This document shows positions 763-20,000 of a stretch of DNA of 20,000 bases, piece by piece. The stretch lies in the IMG/VR virus record IMGVR_UViG_3300042356_002208; one strand, written 5' to 3'. The position numbers and the translations under genes were made by a program. A model generated the notes under the pieces. That model did not search any database and was not told the DNA's origin. It saw only the letters and a list, made by a program, of their open reading frames with translations. Positions within the stretch are counted from its first letter, which is position 1. Each line of letters opens with the position of its first letter. The stretch comes from an uncultured virus (IMG/VR IMGVR_UViG_3300042356_002208) (lineage: Duplodnaviria > Heunggongvirae > Uroviricota > Caudoviricetes).

Positions 763-2166
763 ATGAGTTCTGTTAATAAATCGAAAGCTCTTGAGCTATC
801 CAGCGAGATTAGAAGATTCTATCCTGAATATGAAAAACTTAGAACTAAGATAGAATCTAAGGGGGAGAAAGAATTGAGCGAACAAGAGGTTCAAAAATAC
901 TCGGACTTAAAGGATAAGTTAATGAAGTCGGTTGAAAATACCACTAAGGATGCTTATAAGTTTGTGGATGCTCCAACTCTAGTTAAAGTCCAATCGATTG
1001 TAGGGACTAAGGATGATAAGAGAACAGTTTTTACTTATCAGCCAAAAACATCCGCATCGGATCTGATTGTTGTTACCTCTACTGAAATAAACCAGGCAAC
1101 CATTAATGGTGCTAATAAAAAATTTAAGGGATTACCTGATGATCTATTTGCATTTGGTCATCAACCAACTTTACAAATATTGGGTAGAAATGAACTTTCG
1201 GAGGATAACTGGAAACCGATATATGATTCTACTGATAATAAGATGACTAGCGAATATACGATTAGCTGTTCATTTAGATTAAATAGATTTCCAACTAGAA
1301 CATTTTACAGATCGATAGATTCTATCTATAAAACCAATACAACTAGACGTACGGAGATAATGAGATTTCAGTATTCACGAGAAAACGGTGAAAATGAAAA
1401 GGGTACTAAGCTTTATACTGATCCTCCTCATAACTTTATCTCGATAGGAGCAGTTGCCCCTTACTCTATCATACCTGTCGAGACGGAAGGCAATAAATAT
1501 AGATACAAAGAATCCTATAAAGAGAAAAGAAGTCCATTTTCGATAGGGGTTGCCTTTCCATTAGCCTCCGGATCCCAAACAGTCTACACAGATTATAAGT
1601 TTGAATTGAAGAAATGGTATAATCTGAGGATAGAATTAAGAAAAGAGGACGGTACAACGGATAATACATATAAAGTCCATTTGTATGTTAATGATTTGCT
1701 CCAAGAAGTTGCTCTGGTTCCAAGAATTCTGTGGAATAAAAACTGTGAAAAATTACGCAGAAAAAATCTTTTTGACAGCTTTGATAAAGCTCAAGAGATG
1801 TTGGGGGATCTGGATAAACGGACCAAGTATAATGAAAAATTCTTAATAGCTTCGCTACCTGGATTTAATCATAATAGTAATCGCGAGGAGATTCGTGAAA
1901 AAATATTAAAAGGTGTTGATGAATCTCAAGCAATAAAGTCTTATACCGGAGATATTTCATCGATTAGAGAAGAATTTATTGATTTCCGATTTAACATTCT
2001 CTCTAAGATAGTGACTCCACCATATTATAATGGATTTCTTCATACAAATTTATCTTTGCTCAAGGAACAAACCCAATTCACCAATCACGAAAAATATTGG
2101 GTTCACCATAAGAAGAAAATGAATACGAGTATCGATTATGGGGATATTAGCATTTCACTAAAATAA
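763..2166 (+). CDS. Hypothetical protein, possible central LamG/concanavalin-like beta-sandwich
   Basis: 467 aa ORF; YTISCSFRLN ... FELKKWYNLRIEL ... VHLYVND resembles LamG strand pattern; charged helical N-terminus. Confidence 0.65.
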   Translation: MSSVNKSKALELSSEIRRFYPEYEKLRTKIESKGEKELSEQEVQKYSDLKDKLMKSVENTTKDAYKFVDAPTLVKVQSIVGTKDDKRTVFTYQPKTSASDLIVVTSTEINQATINGANKKFKGLPDDLFAFGHQPTLQILGRNELSEDNWKPIYDSTDNKMTSEYTISCSFRLNRFPTRTFYRSIDSIYKTNTTRRTEIMRFQYSRENGENEKGTKLYTDPPHNFISIGAVAPYSIIPVETEGNKYRYKESYKEKRSPFSIGVAFPLASGSQTVYTDYKFELKKWYNLRIELRKEDGTTDNTYKVHLYVNDLLQEVALVPRILWNKNCEKLRRKNLFDSFDKAQEMLGDLDKRTKYNEKFLIASLPGFNHNSNREEIREKILKGVDESQAIKSYTGDISSIREEFIDFRFNILSKIVTPPYYNGFLHTNLSLLKEQTQFTNHEKYWVHHKKKMNTSIDYGDISISLK

Positions 2167-2191: not shown

Positions 2192-2200
2192 AATATATAG
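2192..2200 (+). promoter_or_regulatory. RATATATA late-promoter-like motif with no downstream ORF
   Basis: AATATATAG immediately upstream of the structured non-coding block. Confidence 0.55.
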
Positions 2201-2204
2201 ACGA

Positions 2205-2404
2205 AAGAGAAGGTATTTAAGAAATTCGGACCTCGTGTCAGAATCATCTCCCTCCAATGGCACTCTTAGCGGGGTGCCATTGGCAGTAGGGCTAATACCT
2301 CGAATAAATTATCATAAAGATATCCGGCGGGTTTAATCCCCCATTTTAGGACCGGAGTAGTTACGACTACTAAGGATCGGAATTCGCTACTCCGATCCTT
2401 TTTT
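2205..2404 (+). ncRNA. Candidate structured non-coding RNA (~200 nt)
   Basis: GC-richer block with no credible ORF; stems 2211-2217/2294-2300, 2224-2231/2237-2244, 2254-2263/2274-2283, 2323-2327/2352-2356, 2356-2361/2366-2371; flanked by promoter motif and terminator. Confidence 0.6.
2372..2404 (+). terminator. Intrinsic terminator
   Basis: AAGGATCGGA-ATTCGCTAC-TCCGATCCTT followed by TTTT on + strand. Confidence 0.75.
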
Positions 2405-2406
2405 AT

Positions 2407-2976
2407 TTAAGCCTTCTCCCATTTAAAATAAACGGTCTTGTCATTCTGAACCTCTATATAGCCATTCGGTTTATATTGATCCCTGTTTAATCTGCAAGAA
2501 AACCTAGTTCCCATATAGATTGTAGATAGACCAGGAAAAGAATTCGATTCCCTAGACTCATTAAATTTGGAAACCTCTTTTATCTGGTCTGGTGATATCG
2601 TTATGTTTAATTCTTCCTTTATTCCTCGGATGATCCCTTCCAGGGGTATTTCATTCGGTCCAATCTTTTCTGATAGAGAAGTGTTTAAAGATCTTGTTTT
2701 TGTTCTGCCTCCTTTGAAAACCTGTTTGTCCTCTTTTAGAATAAACATTCCGAATGTGTCCTCATAGTAGATATTAGCAGAGACCACGTGGATTACTCGG
2801 ATTAATCCATCTTCCGTTTCTGTTAATTCGCATTCCCCAGATCGTATCTCCTGTAAGAGATGATCTACCGTTTTAGCAGCTCCTCTGCCCCATAGATTTA
2901 CTTCTATTCCATTATCTGCTAGATATGATCCCAACTCATGGAGAGTAACCGATATAGGGTTAATTGACGATGCCAT
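2407..2976 (-). CDS. Nudix-hydrolase-like protein (degenerate Nudix box)
   Basis: 189 aa; SEKIGPNEIPLEGIIRGIKEELNI resembles GX5EX7REUXEEXGU with substitutions. Confidence 0.55.
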   Translation of the reverse strand: MASSINPISVTLHELGSYLADNGIEVNLWGRGAAKTVDHLLQEIRSGECELTETEDGLIRVIHVVSANIYYEDTFGMFILKEDKQVFKGGRTKTRSLNTSLSEKIGPNEIPLEGIIRGIKEELNITISPDQIKEVSKFNESRESNSFPGLSTIYMGTRFSCRLNRDQYKPNGYIEVQNDKTVYFKWEKA

Positions 2977-3026: not shown

Positions 3027-4724
3027 ATGCCAACAGCAAGACCATTCGCATATAACACAGGAGCTTCTATTGCAGGAACCGAACAGGTTGGTAACCTGGC
3101 TGTCGGATACCCATCATCTGGGTTTGGATCTACTGGGGTTAGCTGGTGGAATGGTCCGGATGAGGATCTAGGATATGTTATAGCGGCATCAGTTCCCGGG
3201 GGGAATCAACCCACACCAGATGGATTGGGAGCATCAGTTGGATTTTGGAGAAGCGGATCATTAACGGAGCAATCTTTTGTTGATCTAACAAACAGTATAT
3301 TTGGCCAATCTTTTTCGGACGGATCTTCCGCAAAGACATATTTAAATAATAATGGATATTGGACTTCTTTCCCCCTAATTACACCTTTACTTGATCTATA
3401 CCCAAATGCAGCATTAGCTTATTCGTTGCGTAAACTCAGAACAGCTTACTCTGGAAGTGCCATAAGGGTAAGAAGATCGTTGGATGACGCTGAACAAGAT
3501 ATAGGATTTTCTTCCAATGATCTGGACACGGTAGGTTTACTCGATTTCATAGGTTATAATATAACAACATATTCGGAAGATATAAGTCAGACGTCCACCT
3601 ACTCGTATGCCTCTTTAAATGTAACTGGGACTCCTCCCTATTTAAATGTTATAACAGCTCCAGACAATACCCTATCCGGTGATAAACTTATCGAAGGTAC
3701 ATCAGATGCAACCCATATATTGAACAAAACTGGAGGAGTTACTGCTGTAATTGGAGCGGATTATAATTTATCTCTATATCTAAAACAAGGAGAAAGAACA
3801 AGCGTAAGATTTGAATCACTCCTACCCGGAACTACACAAGCTTGCGTCATAAATTTAATAGATGGAACTATATCGGGTAGCAATTTTACGAATTCGCCCG
3901 TAATATCAGCAGAATCTAACGGGTGGTATAGATTTTCAGTTAAAATTACTGCTGGGCAAACTTCTACTTCAAATTGTTTTAGAATTTATTTAAGAGCTGC
4001 GAATGGAGAGTTAGCCTATGCGGGGGACGGTACTTCTGGTGCTTATGTTTGGGGCTTTCAATTAAGTAAAACAGCAGATCTTAGGGCATATCAAAAAACG
4101 TTAGCTTCAGCAGGTGGTGGTTTTGTAACAACCTGGTATGACCAAAGTACAAACTCGAATAATTCAACACAAGCAGCAACAGCAGATCAAGCTCAAATTG
4201 TTTCAGGTGGTTCAATTATAACAGACCCAAATACAGGTAAAATAACCACTACTTGGGTAAATGATAGTTATTCATTAGCATCTGGGATAAGTCCAAATAC
4301 ACGATATTTATCGGTAGGTGTTGTCAATAGAACTTCGAATACTATTAATATCGGTTCAATTGGTAATAGTACTATTGGCGGCATACAGGGTCAGCAACCT
4401 TTATATTGGCAAGCTACAACGGGAAGATTGAGGAGCGACATGAGTTCTCTGGTAAGCCATGGGTTCGATGTTAATGTAGGTGCGTTTATAATTACTTCGG
4501 AAAAAAATTCAAGTGATTTAAAAACTGCTTATGTTAACGGTAGCGCTTCGGCTACGACAGCCACCCAAATTCCAGCAACTGGTGCTAATTTTATTTACTT
4601 TGGCCGAACCGGATCGGGCACAACTTCGGGTAGATATGCTGAATACATATATTGGGATTCTGATCAGAGTGCAAATAGAACAGGAATAGAATCAAACATA
4701 AATACTTACTGGGATGTTTATTGA
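3027..4724 (+). CDS. Virion fibre/spike-like mosaic protein (lectin/arabinofuranosidase-B-like domain with inserted beta-sandwich)
   Basis: 565 aa, G/S/T/N-rich; N-terminal RPFAYN..WWNGPDE module; AYSLRKLR..AIRVRRS..EQDIGF and GFVTTWYDQS motifs; NGWYR..VWGFQL module between them. Confidence 0.7.
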   Translation: MPTARPFAYNTGASIAGTEQVGNLAVGYPSSGFGSTGVSWWNGPDEDLGYVIAASVPGGNQPTPDGLGASVGFWRSGSLTEQSFVDLTNSIFGQSFSDGSSAKTYLNNNGYWTSFPLITPLLDLYPNAALAYSLRKLRTAYSGSAIRVRRSLDDAEQDIGFSSNDLDTVGLLDFIGYNITTYSEDISQTSTYSYASLNVTGTPPYLNVITAPDNTLSGDKLIEGTSDATHILNKTGGVTAVIGADYNLSLYLKQGERTSVRFESLLPGTTQACVINLIDGTISGSNFTNSPVISAESNGWYRFSVKITAGQTSTSNCFRIYLRAANGELAYAGDGTSGAYVWGFQLSKTADLRAYQKTLASAGGGFVTTWYDQSTNSNNSTQAATADQAQIVSGGSIITDPNTGKITTTWVNDSYSLASGISPNTRYLSVGVVNRTSNTINIGSIGNSTIGGIQGQQPLYWQATTGRLRSDMSSLVSHGFDVNVGAFIITSEKNSSDLKTAYVNGSASATTATQIPATGANFIYFGRTGSGTTSGRYAEYIYWDSDQSANRTGIESNINTYWDVY

Positions 4725-17387: not shown

Positions 17388-18431
17388 TTAGTGATAAATA
17401 TTATCAGTATCTTCCCAACGAATTTTCTTTTCCCACTCCCATGCGCTATTTAAAATATCCTTCACACCGAATTTAGACTCCCATCCCAGAATAGAATTAG
17501 CCTTGGTACTGTCGCACCAAACTTCAGCAGGATCTCCTGGCCTTCTTGGTCCTCTTTCGCAAACTAAAAGATCCGGCTCAACGCAGAAGACAAATGTTTC
17601 CGCCATTTCATAAACTGATGTCCCCTTTCCTGTTCCTATGTTGAAGTAATCGAAAGTCCCGATATTCTGAGATTCCAGCCAAGATAAAGCTTTTAGATGA
17701 GCGATTGCGAGATCTGTCACGTGTATATAATCCCTAATAGCTGTACCATCAGGAGTTGGAAAATCCGACCCTGTTATAGTCATCGGTCCATATACTCCTG
17801 CAGCAGATTGTGTTATGATGGGGACAAGGTTGCTCGGTTTCCCTTTTGGTAGTTCCCCTATTAATAAGCTGTTATCAGCTCCTGCTGGATTAAAATATCT
17901 CAGAGCAACTGATCTAATGTTCTGTGATTTTGTCGTGTCCTCAACTATCCACTCACCCATAACCTTAGAAGATCCGTAGGGAGTAGTGCCCTTCCCGATT
18001 GGATGTTCCTCTGTAATTGGTAAAAATTGGGGATCGCCATAAACAGTAGCGGAACTTGAGAATATAAAATTTTTAACATTCCGAATCTTGCAGAATTTCA
18101 GAATATTAAGAAGTGATTTCAGATTGTTATCATAATATTCTATTGGATTGGAAACCGATTCTGGAGAAGATTTTAATGCTGCAAAGTGTATCACCGAATC
18201 AAAATTAGGATCAAGAGAGTCTAATTTTTCAAAAACCATGTGCATAGGTAAGCTGAGATCACATTCTACTAGATCTACTTTCTTTCCGCTGGCTTTTTCT
18301 ATATTCTCTACAGCAGATCTATCTGAATTTATGAATGAGTCCAAGATTACAACATCGTGTCCCTCCCTTAAAGCTTCTACTGCGGTGTGAGATCCAATGT
18401 ACCCCGCACCTCCGGTTATTAAAATTCTCAT
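17388..18431 (-). CDS. galE: UDP-glucose 4-epimerase
   Basis: 347 aa; ILITGGAGYIGSH, VIHFAA, FSSSATVYG, YGSSK, LRYFNP, PTPDGTAIRDYIHV, RRPGD. Confidence 0.95.
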   Translation of the reverse strand: MRILITGGAGYIGSHTAVEALREGHDVVILDSFINSDRSAVENIEKASGKKVDLVECDLSLPMHMVFEKLDSLDPNFDSVIHFAALKSSPESVSNPIEYYDNNLKSLLNILKFCKIRNVKNFIFSSSATVYGDPQFLPITEEHPIGKGTTPYGSSKVMGEWIVEDTTKSQNIRSVALRYFNPAGADNSLLIGELPKGKPSNLVPIITQSAAGVYGPMTITGSDFPTPDGTAIRDYIHVTDLAIAHLKALSWLESQNIGTFDYFNIGTGKGTSVYEMAETFVFCVEPDLLVCERGPRRPGDPAEVWCDSTKANSILGWESKFGVKDILNSAWEWEKKIRWEDTDNIYH

Positions 18432-18865
18432 TTGTGCTTAGGTGATTTAAATCCTTTAAGCTTTTCTCCTATTTTATATTTCCTATTGGTTAAAAATGCA
18501 ATCCCGCATTCAGTGTAAACCCAATACTTATATTTTTCATTCTCCTCCTCCATTATTTCTTCAACATAACAATCAAAATGCTTTTCCCGATAAATAGAGG
18601 AATCATAAGGGAAAGAATTTTTGTCCTCTGATTTATTGTGAATTGGATTTTTACAATCGCCTCTATGTGATCCCCATCTGTTATTCCCTGAACCGTATAC
18701 AATGTACTCGCAGTTATTTAAACGATATACGCTATAATTCTGATCCGAAAATTCTGCGGTAGTATCTAAAGAAATCTTATCCTTATCAGAAGCCTTCTTG
18801 ATATTTACATCCTCACAAGAAACGAGGATAATGGATATTGCTATTAACAAGATTGTTTTATTCAT
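18428..18865 (-). CDS. Lipoprotein
   Basis: 145 aa; signal peptide MNKTILLIAISIILVS-C; CEYIV..HRGDCKNPIH. Confidence 0.75.
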   Translation of the reverse strand: MNKTILLIAISIILVSCEDVNIKKASDKDKISLDTTAEFSDQNYSVYRLNNCEYIVYGSGNNRWGSHRGDCKNPIHNKSEDKNSFPYDSSIYREKHFDCYVEEIMEEENEKYKYWVYTECGIAFLTNRKYKIGEKLKGFKSPKHK

Positions 18866-18872
18866 GCGTTTT

Positions 18873-20000
18873 TTATTTTTCTTTAAGTAGAAAATTATTA
18901 GAGATAGCTTTGAAAGAAACTGTCTTGTTACGGTTTCTAATAACTATACCCTCTCTTTCCGTTTGATTATTTAAGATCGACTTTCCTTCCGCCTGATTTA
19001 GAATCTCATCTATAGTTTCAGGAAGTTGATAGTCTTCTGATATAATTGGAACTAATTCAAGGGGGTTTCCGTCTACGTTGATTTTATCTAAAAAGTCTCT
19101 CATCTCATCAAGACCAAGGTACTCCTGTTCGTCTATGTTGAAAACGTTGAAGATCATAACCTTATGTCCTTTAATTCTGTATGGATTTCCTTGAATGCCC
19201 TCACCTATCAATTCTCCCTGGATTGCGTAGTTTTGATTCTGGGTTCCGAGTTTTTCTGCGATGAAAAATTCCCTAGCAATCTTCCAGAAAGTATTCTCCT
19301 TCTTAGGTCTTTCCACTCCATCTTCACATAAGACCGTTCCTGGTTGGAACTCCCCGGGATCTGCCAATTCTAGATTCCTTGAACAGACACCAAAAACACC
19401 GTCTCTGAAGTAGTATGTTGCAGAAGAACCGTCAAGTTTCTCTGTGACGTAATACTTCTGGGATTTCATATTATCAAACTCCTTGGTCATATTTTGGATT
19501 CTCTCCTCATCAGTCTTTCTGATAAATCCAGGAAAAAATCCTTTAACCTTACCCGATAACTCTGCAGGTATCGGTGGCTCATATTTAACCACTCCAAGAA
19601 TTCCAGTTACGTCGGTTCCTTCCTCTATCACTAAGGCATTATCATATGGACCCAATTGGAGCTGATCTCCCCAGGGCTGTTTGCTAGTTCCGATCTTCAT
19701 TTCACCATCATCTTCCAAGACATGTAGCGGCAAAATGAGTCCTTGACTAATCTGTCCTCTGAGACGGATTGTTTTTAATCTGAATCCCTCTAGATCTCCC
19801 ATTTTCTTGTAGGATGATTTTCTTAGAAATTCAAGATCATCTCTTACTGGGAGGAAAGAGTCTATTTCACAGTAGATGCAAAGATCACCAGGACTATATT
19901 CTCCTTTCTTAGTTACTACTTTCCAAGAATTAATTACTGCTATCTCAATAGCATCAGCTCCTTCTATATGAAGGATTTCCTTTACTCTCTGTATGGAGGC
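18873..20000 (-). CDS. ATP-dependent RNA ligase (Rnl2 / DRB0094 family), start lies beyond the window
   Basis: Frame open to the right edge (ASIQRVKEILHIEGADAIE..YCEIDSFLP..LRGQISQGL); KTDEERIQN, TEKLDGSS, QGELIG, REGIV, FKAISNNFLL. Confidence 0.92.
   Translation of the reverse strand, partial: ASIQRVKEILHIEGADAIEIAVINSWKVVTKKGEYSPGDLCIYCEIDSFLPVRDDLEFLRKSSYKKMGDLEGFRLKTIRLRGQISQGLILPLHVLEDDGEMKIGTSKQPWGDQLQLGPYDNALVIEEGTDVTGILGVVKYEPPIPAELSGKVKGFFPGFIRKTDEERIQNMTKEFDNMKSQKYYVTEKLDGSSATYYFRDGVFGVCSRNLELADPGEFQPGTVLCEDGVERPKKENTFWKIAREFFIAEKLGTQNQNYAIQGELIGEGIQGNPYRIKGHKVMIFNVFNIDEQEYLGLDEMRDFLDKINVDGNPLELVPIISEDYQLPETIDEILNQAEGKSILNNQTEREGIVIRNRNKTVSFKAISNNFLLKEK

Follow-up and report, generated by a model that had tools for sequence, protein, structure and literature searches.

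A candidate phage small-RNA family with complementarity to helix 69 of 23S rRNA within a two-module non-coding locus

The question raised by this locus is what occupies positions 2192-2405 of the window (the whole stretch of 20,000 nucleotides that was analysed), where the plus strand holds the gene-start motif AATATATAG, a series of helices and a U-tailed hairpin, and where a credible open reading frame (ORF) is absent, the only ORFs of at least 20 aa being overlapping frames of 29-33 aa. The original prediction had placed here one stand-alone structured non-coding RNA with a promoter and a terminator of its own, and all elements which it listed were found in place, from AATATATAG at 2192-2200 through to the terminator hairpin at 2372-2400 and its T run. 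The minimum free energy (MFE) fold of the gap RNA as obtained with RNAfold amounts to -65.4 kcal/mol (z -2.96, equalled by 2 of 200 shuffles) and reproduces the structure drawn before; as the minus strand folds at least equally well (z -4.16, no worse than plus), the strand is not assignable from folding energy alone. Two relatives share approximately 78% identity with the gap, as against just 54-62% in the flanking 467-aa protein, and the covariation expected in related phages was identified as compensatory changes in both hairpins of the first domain and in the second domain, hence the element is more than chance. Rfam 15 gave no match at the gathering threshold for the gap and likewise none in 20 family loci, the best sub-threshold scores (LhrC with 18.6 versus 110 bits, ncr1241 with 17.7 versus 60 bits) concerning the terminator only, and a search up to E 10, packaging RNAs and ribozymes included, returned five chance-level matches and nothing else. 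ARAGORN predicted no tRNA or tmRNA gene in the window and none in the 20 family loci, which together with the absence of a match to any Rfam family agrees with the earlier statement that the RNA is neither tRNA nor tmRNA. Judged from its sequence, the gap is an RNA gene which encodes a folded non-coding RNA and has an intrinsic terminator as well as a promoter-like motif; the postulated stand-alone RNA is thus supported by the lack of a credible ORF, the MFE fold and its conservation. The features to which the following refers are:

763..2166, plus strand: 467-aa ORF, the upstream neighbour, with which module 1 travels
2192..2200, plus strand: promoter-like motif AATATATAG, present in three copies in the window
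2205..2300, plus strand: module 1, predicted three-way junction (MFE fold, RNAalifold, model R2)
2211-2217/2294-2300, plus strand: closing helix of module 1, AGGTATT/AATACCT (sequence, MFE fold)
2224-2244, plus strand: hairpin of module 1 (MFE fold)
2250-2291, plus strand: long hairpin of module 1, whose loop is CUUAGCGGG and whose 3' AGU bulge is conserved (MFE fold)
2301..2321, plus strand: AU-rich spacer between the modules, without terminator in the window phage (sequence)
2322..2405, plus strand: module 2, member of a putative phage anti-23S RNA family of approximately 85 nt (model R1)
2323-2327/2352-2356, plus strand: P1, TCCGG/CCGGA, enclosing GGG-TTTAAT-CCC
2329-2340, plus strand: P2, the GGG-TTTAAT-CCC hairpin
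2344..2365, plus strand: segment A, UUUUAGGACCG-GA-GUAGUUACG, set against 23S 1930-1909 (helix 69 and 3' flank)
2356-2371, plus strand: P3, AGTAGT-TACG-ACTACT (MFE fold)
2372-2400, plus strand: intrinsic terminator P4, 10-bp stem 2372-2381/2391-2400, then TTTTTT
2379..2391, plus strand: segment B, GGAAUUCGCUACU, comprising the P4 loop 2382-2390 and closing pairs
2399..2405, plus strand: U tract and predicted transcript end (sequence)
2407..2976, minus strand: 189-aa ORF, convergent, found here only in the window phage

With regard to the transcription unit, the motif ATATATAG was followed genome-wide by the start of an ORF of at least 80 aa no more than 60 nt downstream at 23 of 37 sites, as compared to 0-7 of 11-35 sites for seven scrambled 8-mer controls, and is therefore gene-start associated in the window genome. 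The relative L020 carries the same motif AATATATAG at the same place, and L003 possesses GAATATATAC instead. At the other end P4 combines a G+C-rich hairpin with a directly following U tract, as identifies an intrinsic terminator, and most of the aligned family members likewise have a T run behind P4; a consensus terminator scan did not list the 2372-2400 hairpin, as its 9-nt loop exceeds the 3-8 nt limit of the tool. We infer from this arrangement that the gap is transcribed, and the primary transcript would comprise approximately 200 nt, running from the promoter-like motif at 2192-2200 to the sole terminator at 2372-2405 and including both modules. UUUUCU directly follows the long module 1 hairpin of L003, hence termination or processing between the modules may occur.

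Neither the 467-aa ORF nor the 189-aa ORF gave a Pfam or PHROG match, and single-sequence searches of viral contigs with both proteins found no relatives, which were recovered by an alignment-based protein search of viral contigs. The same search in genome contigs yielded nothing, and blastn of the 2-kb region against phages gave no match. A 17-mer search returned 13 loci, of which only L034 (same contig as L020) and L037 are homologues, the matches in the other 11 (L029-L033, L035, L036, L038-L041) and in L042 being attributed to chance; a further search gave known loci only. For the 467-aa protein eight homologues with 29-97% identity were identified, and in L003 it is 62% identical, though the flanking genes are 94-98% identical. 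Its AlphaFold model (mean pLDDT 56) gave weak matches to lectin/LamG-like jelly rolls (best E 4e-3) and in Foldseek nothing at E 0.001 or better, thus a lectin-like resemblance is no more than hinted at. The 189-aa ORF shows a weak MutT/Nudix match (E 0.11). That the next gene is convergent, as had been stated, holds for the window phage but not for L003, L020 and L037, where this ORF is missing at the same place and a same-strand gene comes next. The genes near the gap include one for a tail protein.

The two domains had been regarded as one unit of about 200 nt, a view which had to be given up, as their distributions are separate: the phage G001 carries the second domain without the first, and matches of the first-domain model in L021 and L006 are located away from any second domain. 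The locus is accordingly described here as two modules which, by this distribution, appear to evolve independently. Within module 1, RNAalifold (window, L003 and L020) assigned 26 pairs, 8 of which show compensatory double changes, and the closing helix varies in sequence and can form in all three. The covariance model R2 scored 110 bits on module 1 of the window and matched L021:4457-4575 (31 bits, E 0.006) and L006:3244-3358 (28 bits, E 0.03), both matches being placed directly 3' of distant homologues of the 467-aa gene. In total, module 1 was found after homologues of this gene in five phages and is thus predicted to be a structured element in its own right, conserved and linked to the upstream gene family. 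A 12-mer in a hairpin arm of the window's module 1 matches E. coli 23S 2701-2712 exactly (E 0.03); complementarity of module 1 to rRNA was nevertheless rejected, as the match was judged to be probably chance and is absent from the relatives, with L003 showing chance-level 9-mers nearby only and L020, L021 and L006 none.

Module 2 is of wider distribution. A strict pattern search identified 61 loci in IMG/VR and also matched the megaphages LR756502.1 and LR745206.1 (635-642 kb), which after addition of the window, L003 and these two megaphages resulted in 53 distinct sequences. The window shows all features of the family, namely a P1 helix that surrounds both a variable hairpin and the unpaired UUUAGGA, a variable P3 and the terminator P4 with the loop (A/G)UUCGCUAC followed by a U tract. 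The covariance model R1 scored 93 bits (E 1e-20) on 2322-2405, a value owed in part to construction, as the window is one of the 22 training rows. When loci were chosen by the nrdA gene alone, R1 found the RNA in 22 of 80, and 17 of these, which neither belong to the training set nor fit the search pattern, scored 29-51 bits; R1 hence picks up members departing from the seed pattern. Module 2 is near-invariant in L003, L020 and L037, although the proteins which L020 and L037 share with the window phage are only 34-70% identical. The search patterns partly fixed UUUAGGACCGG and AAUUCGCUAC, so that block invariance is overstated in the pattern-derived set, a bias which the nrdA-based set corrects for one clade only. 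The stems are paired in 88.7% of cells versus 67.2% in shuffles (0 of 500 reach this value), and the covariation score amounts to 0.566 versus 0.180 in shuffles (0 of 500) and 0.08-0.16 in slid controls. Of 22 sequences, 13 have A-U and 9 have U-A as the outer P1 pair, P4 shows double changes in 8 of 9 pairs with no pair broken (52 sequences), and the P4 loop is invariant while its stem covaries at 10 of 11 pairs. A switch between P3 and the P4 loop (GAGUAG/CUACUC) was ruled out, as a megaphage copy has a different P3, and a T-loop reading of P2 was dropped, as P2 varies freely. Taken together, module 2 is predicted to belong to a small-RNA family that is widespread in phages and uncatalogued in Rfam, which explains why it is unannotated in phage genomes; full-text literature searches returned no description of it. 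The neighbours of the RNA belong to many unrelated protein clusters, and in L068 and L094 a homing-endonuclease-like gene adjoins it.

Together, the invariant exposed blocks of module 2 were found to complement a single uninterrupted 34-nt region of 23S rRNA, 1909-1942, which comprises the helix 69 loop (1909/1912-1916), the 3' strand of the helix with its flank (1920-1931) and the strand after it (1929-1942). Here, complementarity was scored on E. coli rrlH as a stand-in, which may differ from the 23S rRNA of the phage host. Segment A, whose UUUUAGGA forms an unpaired internal loop in the MFE fold of the window, matches 23S 1930-1909 with 17 Watson-Crick and 3 G.U pairs in 22 positions, and segment B matches 1942-1929 with 12 Watson-Crick pairs and 1 G.U pair in 13 positions, A1938 being bulged. 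Positions 1920-1928 are paired by 44-45 of 45 members, with 7 of these 9 positions fixed by the selecting pattern. With RNAduplex, 38 of 45 members had their best segment A site on the rrn operon at 1906-1931, and 29 of 45 had their best segment B site at 1927-1944 (0 of 225 shuffles in either case), the remaining 7 and 16 pieces, respectively, having a better site elsewhere on the operon. Gapped complementarity scores average 35.3 in the family (minimum 27) versus 15.5 in 900 shuffles (maximum 30). For the window, cofolding gave a ddG of -17.2 kcal/mol versus -6.6 +/- 2.8 in shuffles (0 of 200 reach it), and 1901-1951 was the best among 57 tiled 23S windows. With blastn-short, L070, L103 and L106 were found to be antisense to 23S 1907-1928 with 21 of 22 matches, and the pattern-independent members L157 and L170 share a 19-nt stretch that is 100% identical to records annotated as 23S rRNA of Salmonella, Acinetobacter and Dickeya and to unannotated records named Listeria, Staphylococcus and others. 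Where members deviate from perfect complementarity, it is mostly by a U facing a G (G1929 in 41 of 45, G1930 in 29 of 45, after the P4 loop in 45 of 45), and the diverged member L021:654-723 keeps the complementarity with shifted borders. The complementarity of module 2 to 23S rRNA is thus non-random. Short rRNA matches can also arise by more than one route, as AGGACCGGAGU(A/G)G of the window clade has the same sense sequence as the 3' side of the sarcin-ricin loop. A mimic of this loop, whose universal motif we take to be AGUACGAGAGGA with a GAGA tetraloop, was rejected, since only AGGACCGGAGU (11 nt) occurs in sense and the window RNA, when compared with 23S 2640-2790, lacks the 5' half; in most family members the match does not extend past AGGACCGG.

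These data make it slightly more probable than its opposite that module 2 is an antisense RNA pairing with host 23S rRNA, and four further explanations of the family as well as those first offered were weighed against it. Unlikely, though of some appeal, is a protein-binding or scaffold RNA whose invariant blocks serve as binding site for a protein of the phage or host, the 23S match being a relic, e.g., a captured antisense piece of rDNA, or a coincidence. Invariant loops on variable stems are typical of protein-binding RNAs too, the permuted order of the blocks would suit a three-dimensional motif better than a linear antisense RNA, and UUUAGGA holds an A(N)GGA-like element within a loop, reminiscent of the CsrA-type motif. 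However, no protein gene is consistently adjacent to the RNA, all three invariant blocks fall within the one 34-nt stretch of 23S rRNA, and substitutions lean to G.U pairs or better complements; a relic, moreover, would not remain invariant in phages with 30-50% identical proteins.

The genomic contexts bear on a second explanation, to which a small chance is assigned, namely that module 2 acts in cis as an elaborate terminator and mRNA-stabilising structure for the upstream gene and is devoid of a trans function. A hairpin with a U tract always forms its end, 26 of 56 copies directly follow the nrdA stop codon, and those of L037, L050, L064 and L070 lie directly 3' of a same-strand gene, but in 12 of 56 the upstream neighbour is on the opposite strand, and in 14 of 23 type-A members promoter-like motifs of the type [AT]ATATA[TAG] finish 3-10 nt upstream of the RNA. 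Furthermore, termination requires neither an invariant loop nor an invariant upstream internal loop, the RNA is single-copy in each of 5 large phage genomes, unlike generic terminators, and 58 of the 80 related nrdA genes, which lack the family RNA, have ordinary terminators or none.

Base-pairing small RNAs are well known, and an ordinary one that regulates host or phage mRNAs by the same exposed blocks, the rRNA match being incidental, was also considered and found improbable. Exposed conserved seeds and a 3' Rho-independent terminator are shared with the classical bacterial small RNAs RybB, OmrA/B, CpxQ and SdhX, and the nrdA subclass, in which the copies form the mRNA 3' end, resembles the 3'UTR-derived types. 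Yet the known targets of these small RNAs are mRNAs, whereas the phage RNA places one block within the terminator loop and all of its blocks match rRNA. As mRNA targets are host-specific, invariance across megaphages, jumbo and T4-like phages would be unexpected, while a universally conserved target accounts for it, and a search of the phage genome for a second rRNA-like or target-like stretch gave chance-level matches only.

The options first put forward, a phi29-like packaging RNA, a protein sponge, a self-cleaving ribozyme or an anti-defence decoy, turned out to be unsupported, the conserved parts of module 2 pointing to pairing with 23S rRNA instead, and for packaging RNA, ribozyme and decoy we consider the chance very slight. 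In their favour are the three-way junction of module 1, as in the phage-encoded phi29 pRNA of 120-170 nt, a possibly late promoter and the nearby tail protein gene; unlike phi29 pRNA, the gap is not beside packaging genes (its neighbours are the 467-aa ORF and the Nudix-like ORF), no Rfam family, pRNA included, was matched up to E 10 beyond the chance-level hits, no paralogue or repeat of the element was found, and module 2 occurs in phage groups and contexts that are unrelated to one another. Least credible of all is a DNA-level element, i.e., an rDNA-identical site for recombination, integration or homing-endonuclease recognition, for although identity with the 23S gene reaches 19-22 bp and L068 and L094 have the endonuclease-like neighbour, the rDNA-like sequence is split into two separated halves in permuted order, the covariation of the stems is that of an RNA, with 39 G.U cells that would be A.C if read from the opposite strand, the preferred departure is T opposite G, which would be a mismatch in DNA but a wobble pair in RNA, and promoter motifs and a U-tailed terminator are present.

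Returning to antisense pairing with 23S rRNA, the proposed mechanism assumes that the covarying, variable helices P1-P4 display the three near-invariant blocks, that the internal loop UUUUAGGA and the 9-nt loop of P4, AUUCGCUAC, would make the first contacts and that pairing would then extend into P3. Full pairing requires unfolding, since UAGU and CCGG are paired in P3 and P1. Segment A lies 5' of segment B and so does its target relative to that of B, an order which is permuted as compared to a plain antisense RNA, and simultaneous pairing of both segments would therefore call for an unusual, clamp-like geometry. The same 5'-to-3' order is adopted by the EBS2/EBS1-IBS2/IBS1 guides of group II introns, where guides in separate loops, one of them a terminal hairpin loop like that of P4, pair with adjacent targets; the likeness is one of geometry only, as the phage RNA comprises 85 nt, ends with a terminator and has no intron domains. 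The short structured antisense RNAs of the CopA/CopT (R1), RNA I/RNA II (ColE1) and Sok/hok systems likewise possess a promoter and terminator of their own, and as in CopA/CopT-type antisense the complementary bases of the phage RNA are found in loops, could nucleate on a target hairpin loop and then extend, helix 69 itself being a hairpin. Those RNAs, however, are encoded in cis, and their complementarity to an mRNA or primer is complete, whereas the phage RNA would be trans-encoded by a virus against rRNA in three permuted blocks.

Helix 69 of the 50S subunit forms the B2a bridge to the 30S subunit, and the target region of 23S rRNA is buried or structured in mature 70S ribosomes. Free 50S subunits or nascent 23S rRNA were proposed as the target, and subunit joining or 50S maturation would be expected to be disturbed. 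Pairing in vivo and every physiological consequence of module 2 are what we infer from the sequence, on which basis the phage probably acts directly on host ribosomes through RNA; the more specific proposition that T4-like phages, jumbo phages and megaphages encode a dedicated small RNA which binds host 23S rRNA at helix 69 and the strand next to it falls just short of an even chance. A blanket inhibition of ribosomes is hard to rationalise, as the phage itself needs working ribosomes. The RNA could stall or sequester 50S subunits, block the assembly of new ribosomes or shield the site from a ribosome-targeting host defence. An assembly block would suit the nrdA clade, where the RNA would be expressed together with ribonucleotide reductase and nucleotides would be diverted from rRNA to DNA, and module 2 of the window phage would under this reading be fused behind a second structured RNA and share one promoter with it.

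If the pairing is real, the near-invariance of an 85-nt RNA across otherwise dissimilar phages would follow from the universal conservation of its target, an RNA-based route would be added to the phage takeover of translation, and the RNA would constitute a natural viral antisense agent against a ribosomal intersubunit bridge. To our knowledge no phage or cellular small RNA has been shown to act on bacterial rRNA, and full-text literature searches returned no description of one; nor do we know of bacteria using rRNA guides of the C/D or H/ACA type. The function of those guides in archaea and eukaryotes rests on rRNA complementarity, as is proposed here, but the phage RNA shows neither box C/D nor H/ACA architecture, no partner enzyme gene is linked to it, and its Rfam snoRNA matches are at chance level (17 bits versus a gathering score of 39-60). 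That helix 69 can be reached by a complementary oligomer is indicated by a synthetic PNA, which stops translation and growth of E. coli (Kulik et al. 2017, Biochimie, as described in PMC12828698). This PNA is artificial and short, whereas the phage RNA is a natural 85-nt fold which also covers 1925-1942 and would, if it pairs, provide a natural precedent for antisense antibacterials against helix 69. Among the sequencing runs listed, none of which is an RNA run, the stretch was present in 24 DNA runs from lake water.

The putative RNA resides in a 240-nt gap between the 467-aa ORF and the 189-aa ORF of a virus record of 289,651 bp (37% G+C, complete according to CheckV). The features concerned are as follows, in window coordinates unless prefixed with G000, the genome of the window phage:

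763-2166, plus strand, 467-aa ORF, upstream border of the RNA gap
2205-2300, module 1, three-way junction
2322-2405, module 2, RNA family member with segments A (2344-2365) and B (2379-2391)
2407-2976, minus strand, convergent 189-aa ORF, downstream border of the RNA gap
3027-4724, 565-aa tail protein (phrog_5939)
17388-19802, minus strand, nucleotide-sugar epimerase-like ORF (phrog_540) adjoining an RNA ligase ORF (phrog_968)
G000:C1:146574-147063, outside the window, tmRNA-like gene (tag EEVELAVAA; ARAGORN)
G000:C1:168811-168882, outside the window, tRNA-Lys(UUU) (ARAGORN)

The original prediction had proposed a stand-alone, two-domain RNA of about 200 nt, and its motifs and helices were all found at their positions, the drawn structure being reproduced by RNAfold (-65.4 kcal/mol, z -2.96, 2 of 200 shuffles equally good). 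As predicted, the gap lacks a credible ORF, holding overlapping frames of 29-33 aa only, and neither a tRNA nor a tmRNA was detected in the window; Rfam gave no match at gathering level, and five chance-level matches at E up to 10, for the window. A paralogue of the gap RNA was not found in the phage genome. The sequencing runs listed for the stretch were exclusively DNA runs. As the minus strand of the gap folds equally well or better (z -4.16), the strand was assigned by the upstream motif, by the T run that comes after the final hairpin and by the G.U pairs of the family, whose alignment holds 39 G.U cells.

Module 2 was recognised as a family by a blastn match to a 642-kb uncultured megaphage, which shares the architecture with different stems, a second megaphage being found later. 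The family pattern, TTTAGGACCGG-N18-48-AATTCGCTAC, fits 61 loci in IMG/VR, whose contigs measure 5-597 kb, and with the window, its relative L003 and the two megaphages added, 53 distinct sequences were obtained; among 20 pattern-found loci there was no Rfam or ARAGORN match. Helix P1 (N-CCGG/CCGG-N) encloses hairpin P2, which is variable, and the sequence UUUAGGA, which is unpaired. On its 3' side come P3, another variable hairpin, a linker rich in A, and P4, a terminator hairpin whose loop is invariant. Covariation, proposed earlier as a check of the RNA, was found in P4 as double changes in 8 of 9 pairs with none broken; in P1, 13 sequences have A-U and 9 have U-A as the outermost pair. In an alignment of 55 distinct rows, which was fitted to the model and hence leans towards it, 88.7% of cells pair, compared with 67.2% after shuffling. 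Covariation scores 0.566 (0.180 in shuffles, 0.08-0.16 in slid controls), and neither value is reached by any of 500 shuffles. The covariance model built from module 2, R1, scores the window with 93 bits, identifies one significant copy per genome in five of five large phage genomes and does not match the E. coli rrn operon. On contig IMGVR_UViG_3300033067_001732 (L057/L058/L124), two family members lie on the same strand 783 nt apart.

Complementarity was assessed against the E. coli rrn operon, a stand-in which may differ from the host's rRNA. Here, blastn-short aligned family members antisense to 23S 1907-1928 with 21/22 (L070, L103, L106) or 19/20 (L064) matching positions, further members reaching 20/22 (L086, L090) and 16/17 (L054, L068, L078). 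Forty-five distinct members, chosen by the relaxed pattern AGGACCG ... TTCGCTAC plus the P4 stem, pair with 23S 1920-1928 in 44-45 cases, of which 1920-1926 are fixed by the pattern; after a variable 2-4 nt the members carry U(A/G)GU(U/C), which is complementary to the loop of helix 69 (1912-1916). In the P4 loop, the core forms pairs with 1930-1937, likewise pattern-fixed, the next U lies opposite G1929 in 45 of 45 members, and 1939-1942 are paired in 45, 45, 39 and 32 members with A1938 bulged. The best RNAduplex site within the whole 5.6-kb operon was 23S 1906-1931 for segment A (38/45) and 1927-1944 for segment B (29/45), sites obtained with 0 of 225 shuffles each, and gapped alignment scores averaged 35.3 (range 27-45) versus 15.5 (maximum 30) in 900 shuffles. 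For the window itself, 2344-2365 forms 17 Watson-Crick and 3 G.U pairs over 22 positions with 23S 1930-1909, and 2379-2391 forms 12 and 1 over 13 positions with 1942-1929. Cofolding with 23S 1900-1950 yielded a ddG of -17.2 kcal/mol versus -6.6 +/- 2.8 (0 of 200 dinucleotide shuffles reach it), and among 57 windows tiling the 23S rRNA, 1901-1951 was the best partner. The diverged member L021:654-723 keeps the complementarity with shifted borders. The invariance of the blocks is partly fixed by the search patterns, segment A is partly paired inside the RNA's own fold, and the block order of the two segments is permuted versus a plain antisense. In the window clade, AGGACCGGAGU(A/G)G additionally matches, in sense orientation and without mismatch, the 3' side of the sarcin-ricin loop, a warning that short rRNA matches can be ambiguous.

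The variable parts of module 2 are its helices and the invariant parts are exposed, and all of the latter map to a single stretch of 34 nt in the most conserved rRNA. Given variable helices, fixed exposed blocks, a single conserved target stretch and the preference for U opposite G, module 2 is, on balance, suggested to act in trans as an antisense RNA whose target is helix 69 of 23S rRNA together with the strand after it. A universally conserved target accounts for blocks that stay constant among phages with hardly anything else in common. A protein-binding RNA, for which invariant loops on variable stems would be typical too, is considered rather unlikely next to these rRNA-matching blocks. 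An ordinary mRNA-targeting sRNA is a doubtful reading, as its targets would differ between hosts. It is similarly improbable that module 2 acts in cis as a terminator module; P4 is a terminator hairpin, yet termination would require neither its invariant loop nor the invariant internal loop further upstream. A DNA site is hardly tenable, as U favoured opposite G fits RNA-RNA pairing better than DNA identity: among the 45 members, G1929 faces 4 Watson-Crick and 41 G.U partners, and G1930 13 and 29. For U1931, the corresponding counts are 27 and 3.

On free 50S subunits, helix 69, the element that makes up bridge B2a, lies exposed. When it is targeted by a synthetic PNA, translation and the growth of E. 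coli are blocked (Kulik 2017, as summarised in PMC12828698). An antisense RNA of this kind could sequester or stall 50S subunits, could shield the 23S site from a host defence, or could block new ribosome assembly, the latter fitting the linkage to nrdA if nucleotides were diverted from rRNA to DNA. Rfam 15 holds no family corresponding to module 2, and in those parts of the full-text literature covered, outside subscription journals, no phage or bacterial RNA was described to pair with 23S rRNA. The window contributes the fusion of a family member to the 3' side of another conserved module, with a single promoter-like motif for both, an nrdA 3'-end subclass, a pattern-free sample drifting around the perfect 23S complement, and the wobble argument together with a working covariance model.

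Within 56 distinct contexts, the RNA directly follows the stop codon of the ribonucleotide reductase large-subunit gene (nrdA) in 26 and has an opposite-strand upstream neighbour in 12, and no protein family regularly adjoins it. Eighty loci picked by nrdA similarity alone yielded 22 R1 matches after nrdA, the other 58 carrying a plain terminator, the next gene or a cut (2 loci). Of these members, 17 lie outside the pattern, with deviations going towards the 23S complement: a 19-nt stretch of L157 and L170 is 100% identical to annotated 23S rRNA of Salmonella, Acinetobacter and Dickeya, and also to unannotated records named Listeria, Staphylococcus and others. Just downstream of the RNA, nrdB is located in L054, L078 and L082, and a 490-aa homing-endonuclease/HNH-like gene (phrog_3339, DUF7487; minus strand) adjoins it in L068 (1-1476) and L094.

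The upstream motif ATATATAG is a gene-start, promoter-like motif: 23 of its 37 genome copies have a same-strand ORF of at least 80 aa starting within 60 nt downstream, versus 0-7 of 11-35 for seven scrambled 8-mers, by which association the predicted promoter of the RNA is borne out as promoter-like; GATATATA gave 42/58 in the same test. In type-A members, [AT]ATATA[TAG] occurs within 40 nt upstream in 15 of 23, ending 3-10 nt before the RNA in 14, and the eight motif-less members comprise five copies directly behind a gene and three module-1 carriers, in which the motif is positioned upstream of module 1 instead. Outside the window, at G000:C1:261464 (+) and G000:C1:39663 (+), a short hairpin and T run begin no more than about 10 nt after ATATATAG, which could represent a very short transcript or promoter and terminator back to back.

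The proposed unity of the two domains was not upheld, as a 270-kb genome (99% complete) carrying locus L037 possesses module 2 without module 1: only the 3' half is present, 13 nt downstream of an unrelated gene of 150 aa, and both the 467-aa gene and the RNA 5' half are absent. Module 1 is conserved between the window and both L003 and L020; double changes occur in 8 of 26 pairs, and the closing helix has three different sequences, pairing being possible in each. A model trained on these three (R2) and searched in 53 sources gave further weak matches at L021:4457-4575 (31 bits, E 0.006) and L006:3244-3358 (28 bits, E 0.03); a long hairpin bearing an AGU bulge on its 3' strand is common to both copies, and a U run ends the L021 copy. 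Since each directly follows a distant (29-31%) homologue of the 467-aa gene, module 1 travels with that gene. In the long-hairpin arm (2254-2285), a 12-mer matches E. coli 23S 2701-2712 exactly (E 0.03); L003 has chance-level 9-mers nearby only and L020, L021 and L006 have none, and the match is probably due to chance, but the host rRNA may differ from the E. coli reference.

The 467-aa protein has eight homologues. Alignment-based searches yielded L003, L020 and other loci, among them L002, which belongs to the window phage itself. Across the gap, identity amounts to about 78% for L003 and L020, and protein identity to the window phage is 54-86% for L020 and 34-53% for L037. L003 is closely related and has exchanged a cassette: flanking proteins are 94-98% identical, versus 62% for the 467-aa protein and 52% for the 565-aa tail protein. 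The convergent next gene holds for the window phage only, where the 189-aa ORF (weak MutT/Nudix match, E 0.11) is present; L003, L020 and L037 lack it and have GATATATA(G) directly after the terminator, then a same-strand gene. This ORF resembles a recent insertion adjoining the RNA terminator. The 467-aa protein matched no family, and its low-confidence model (pLDDT 56) gave weak lectin/LamG-like beta-sandwich matches only. Together with the 565-aa tail protein it forms divergent cassettes, both of which look like exchangeable host-recognition parts.
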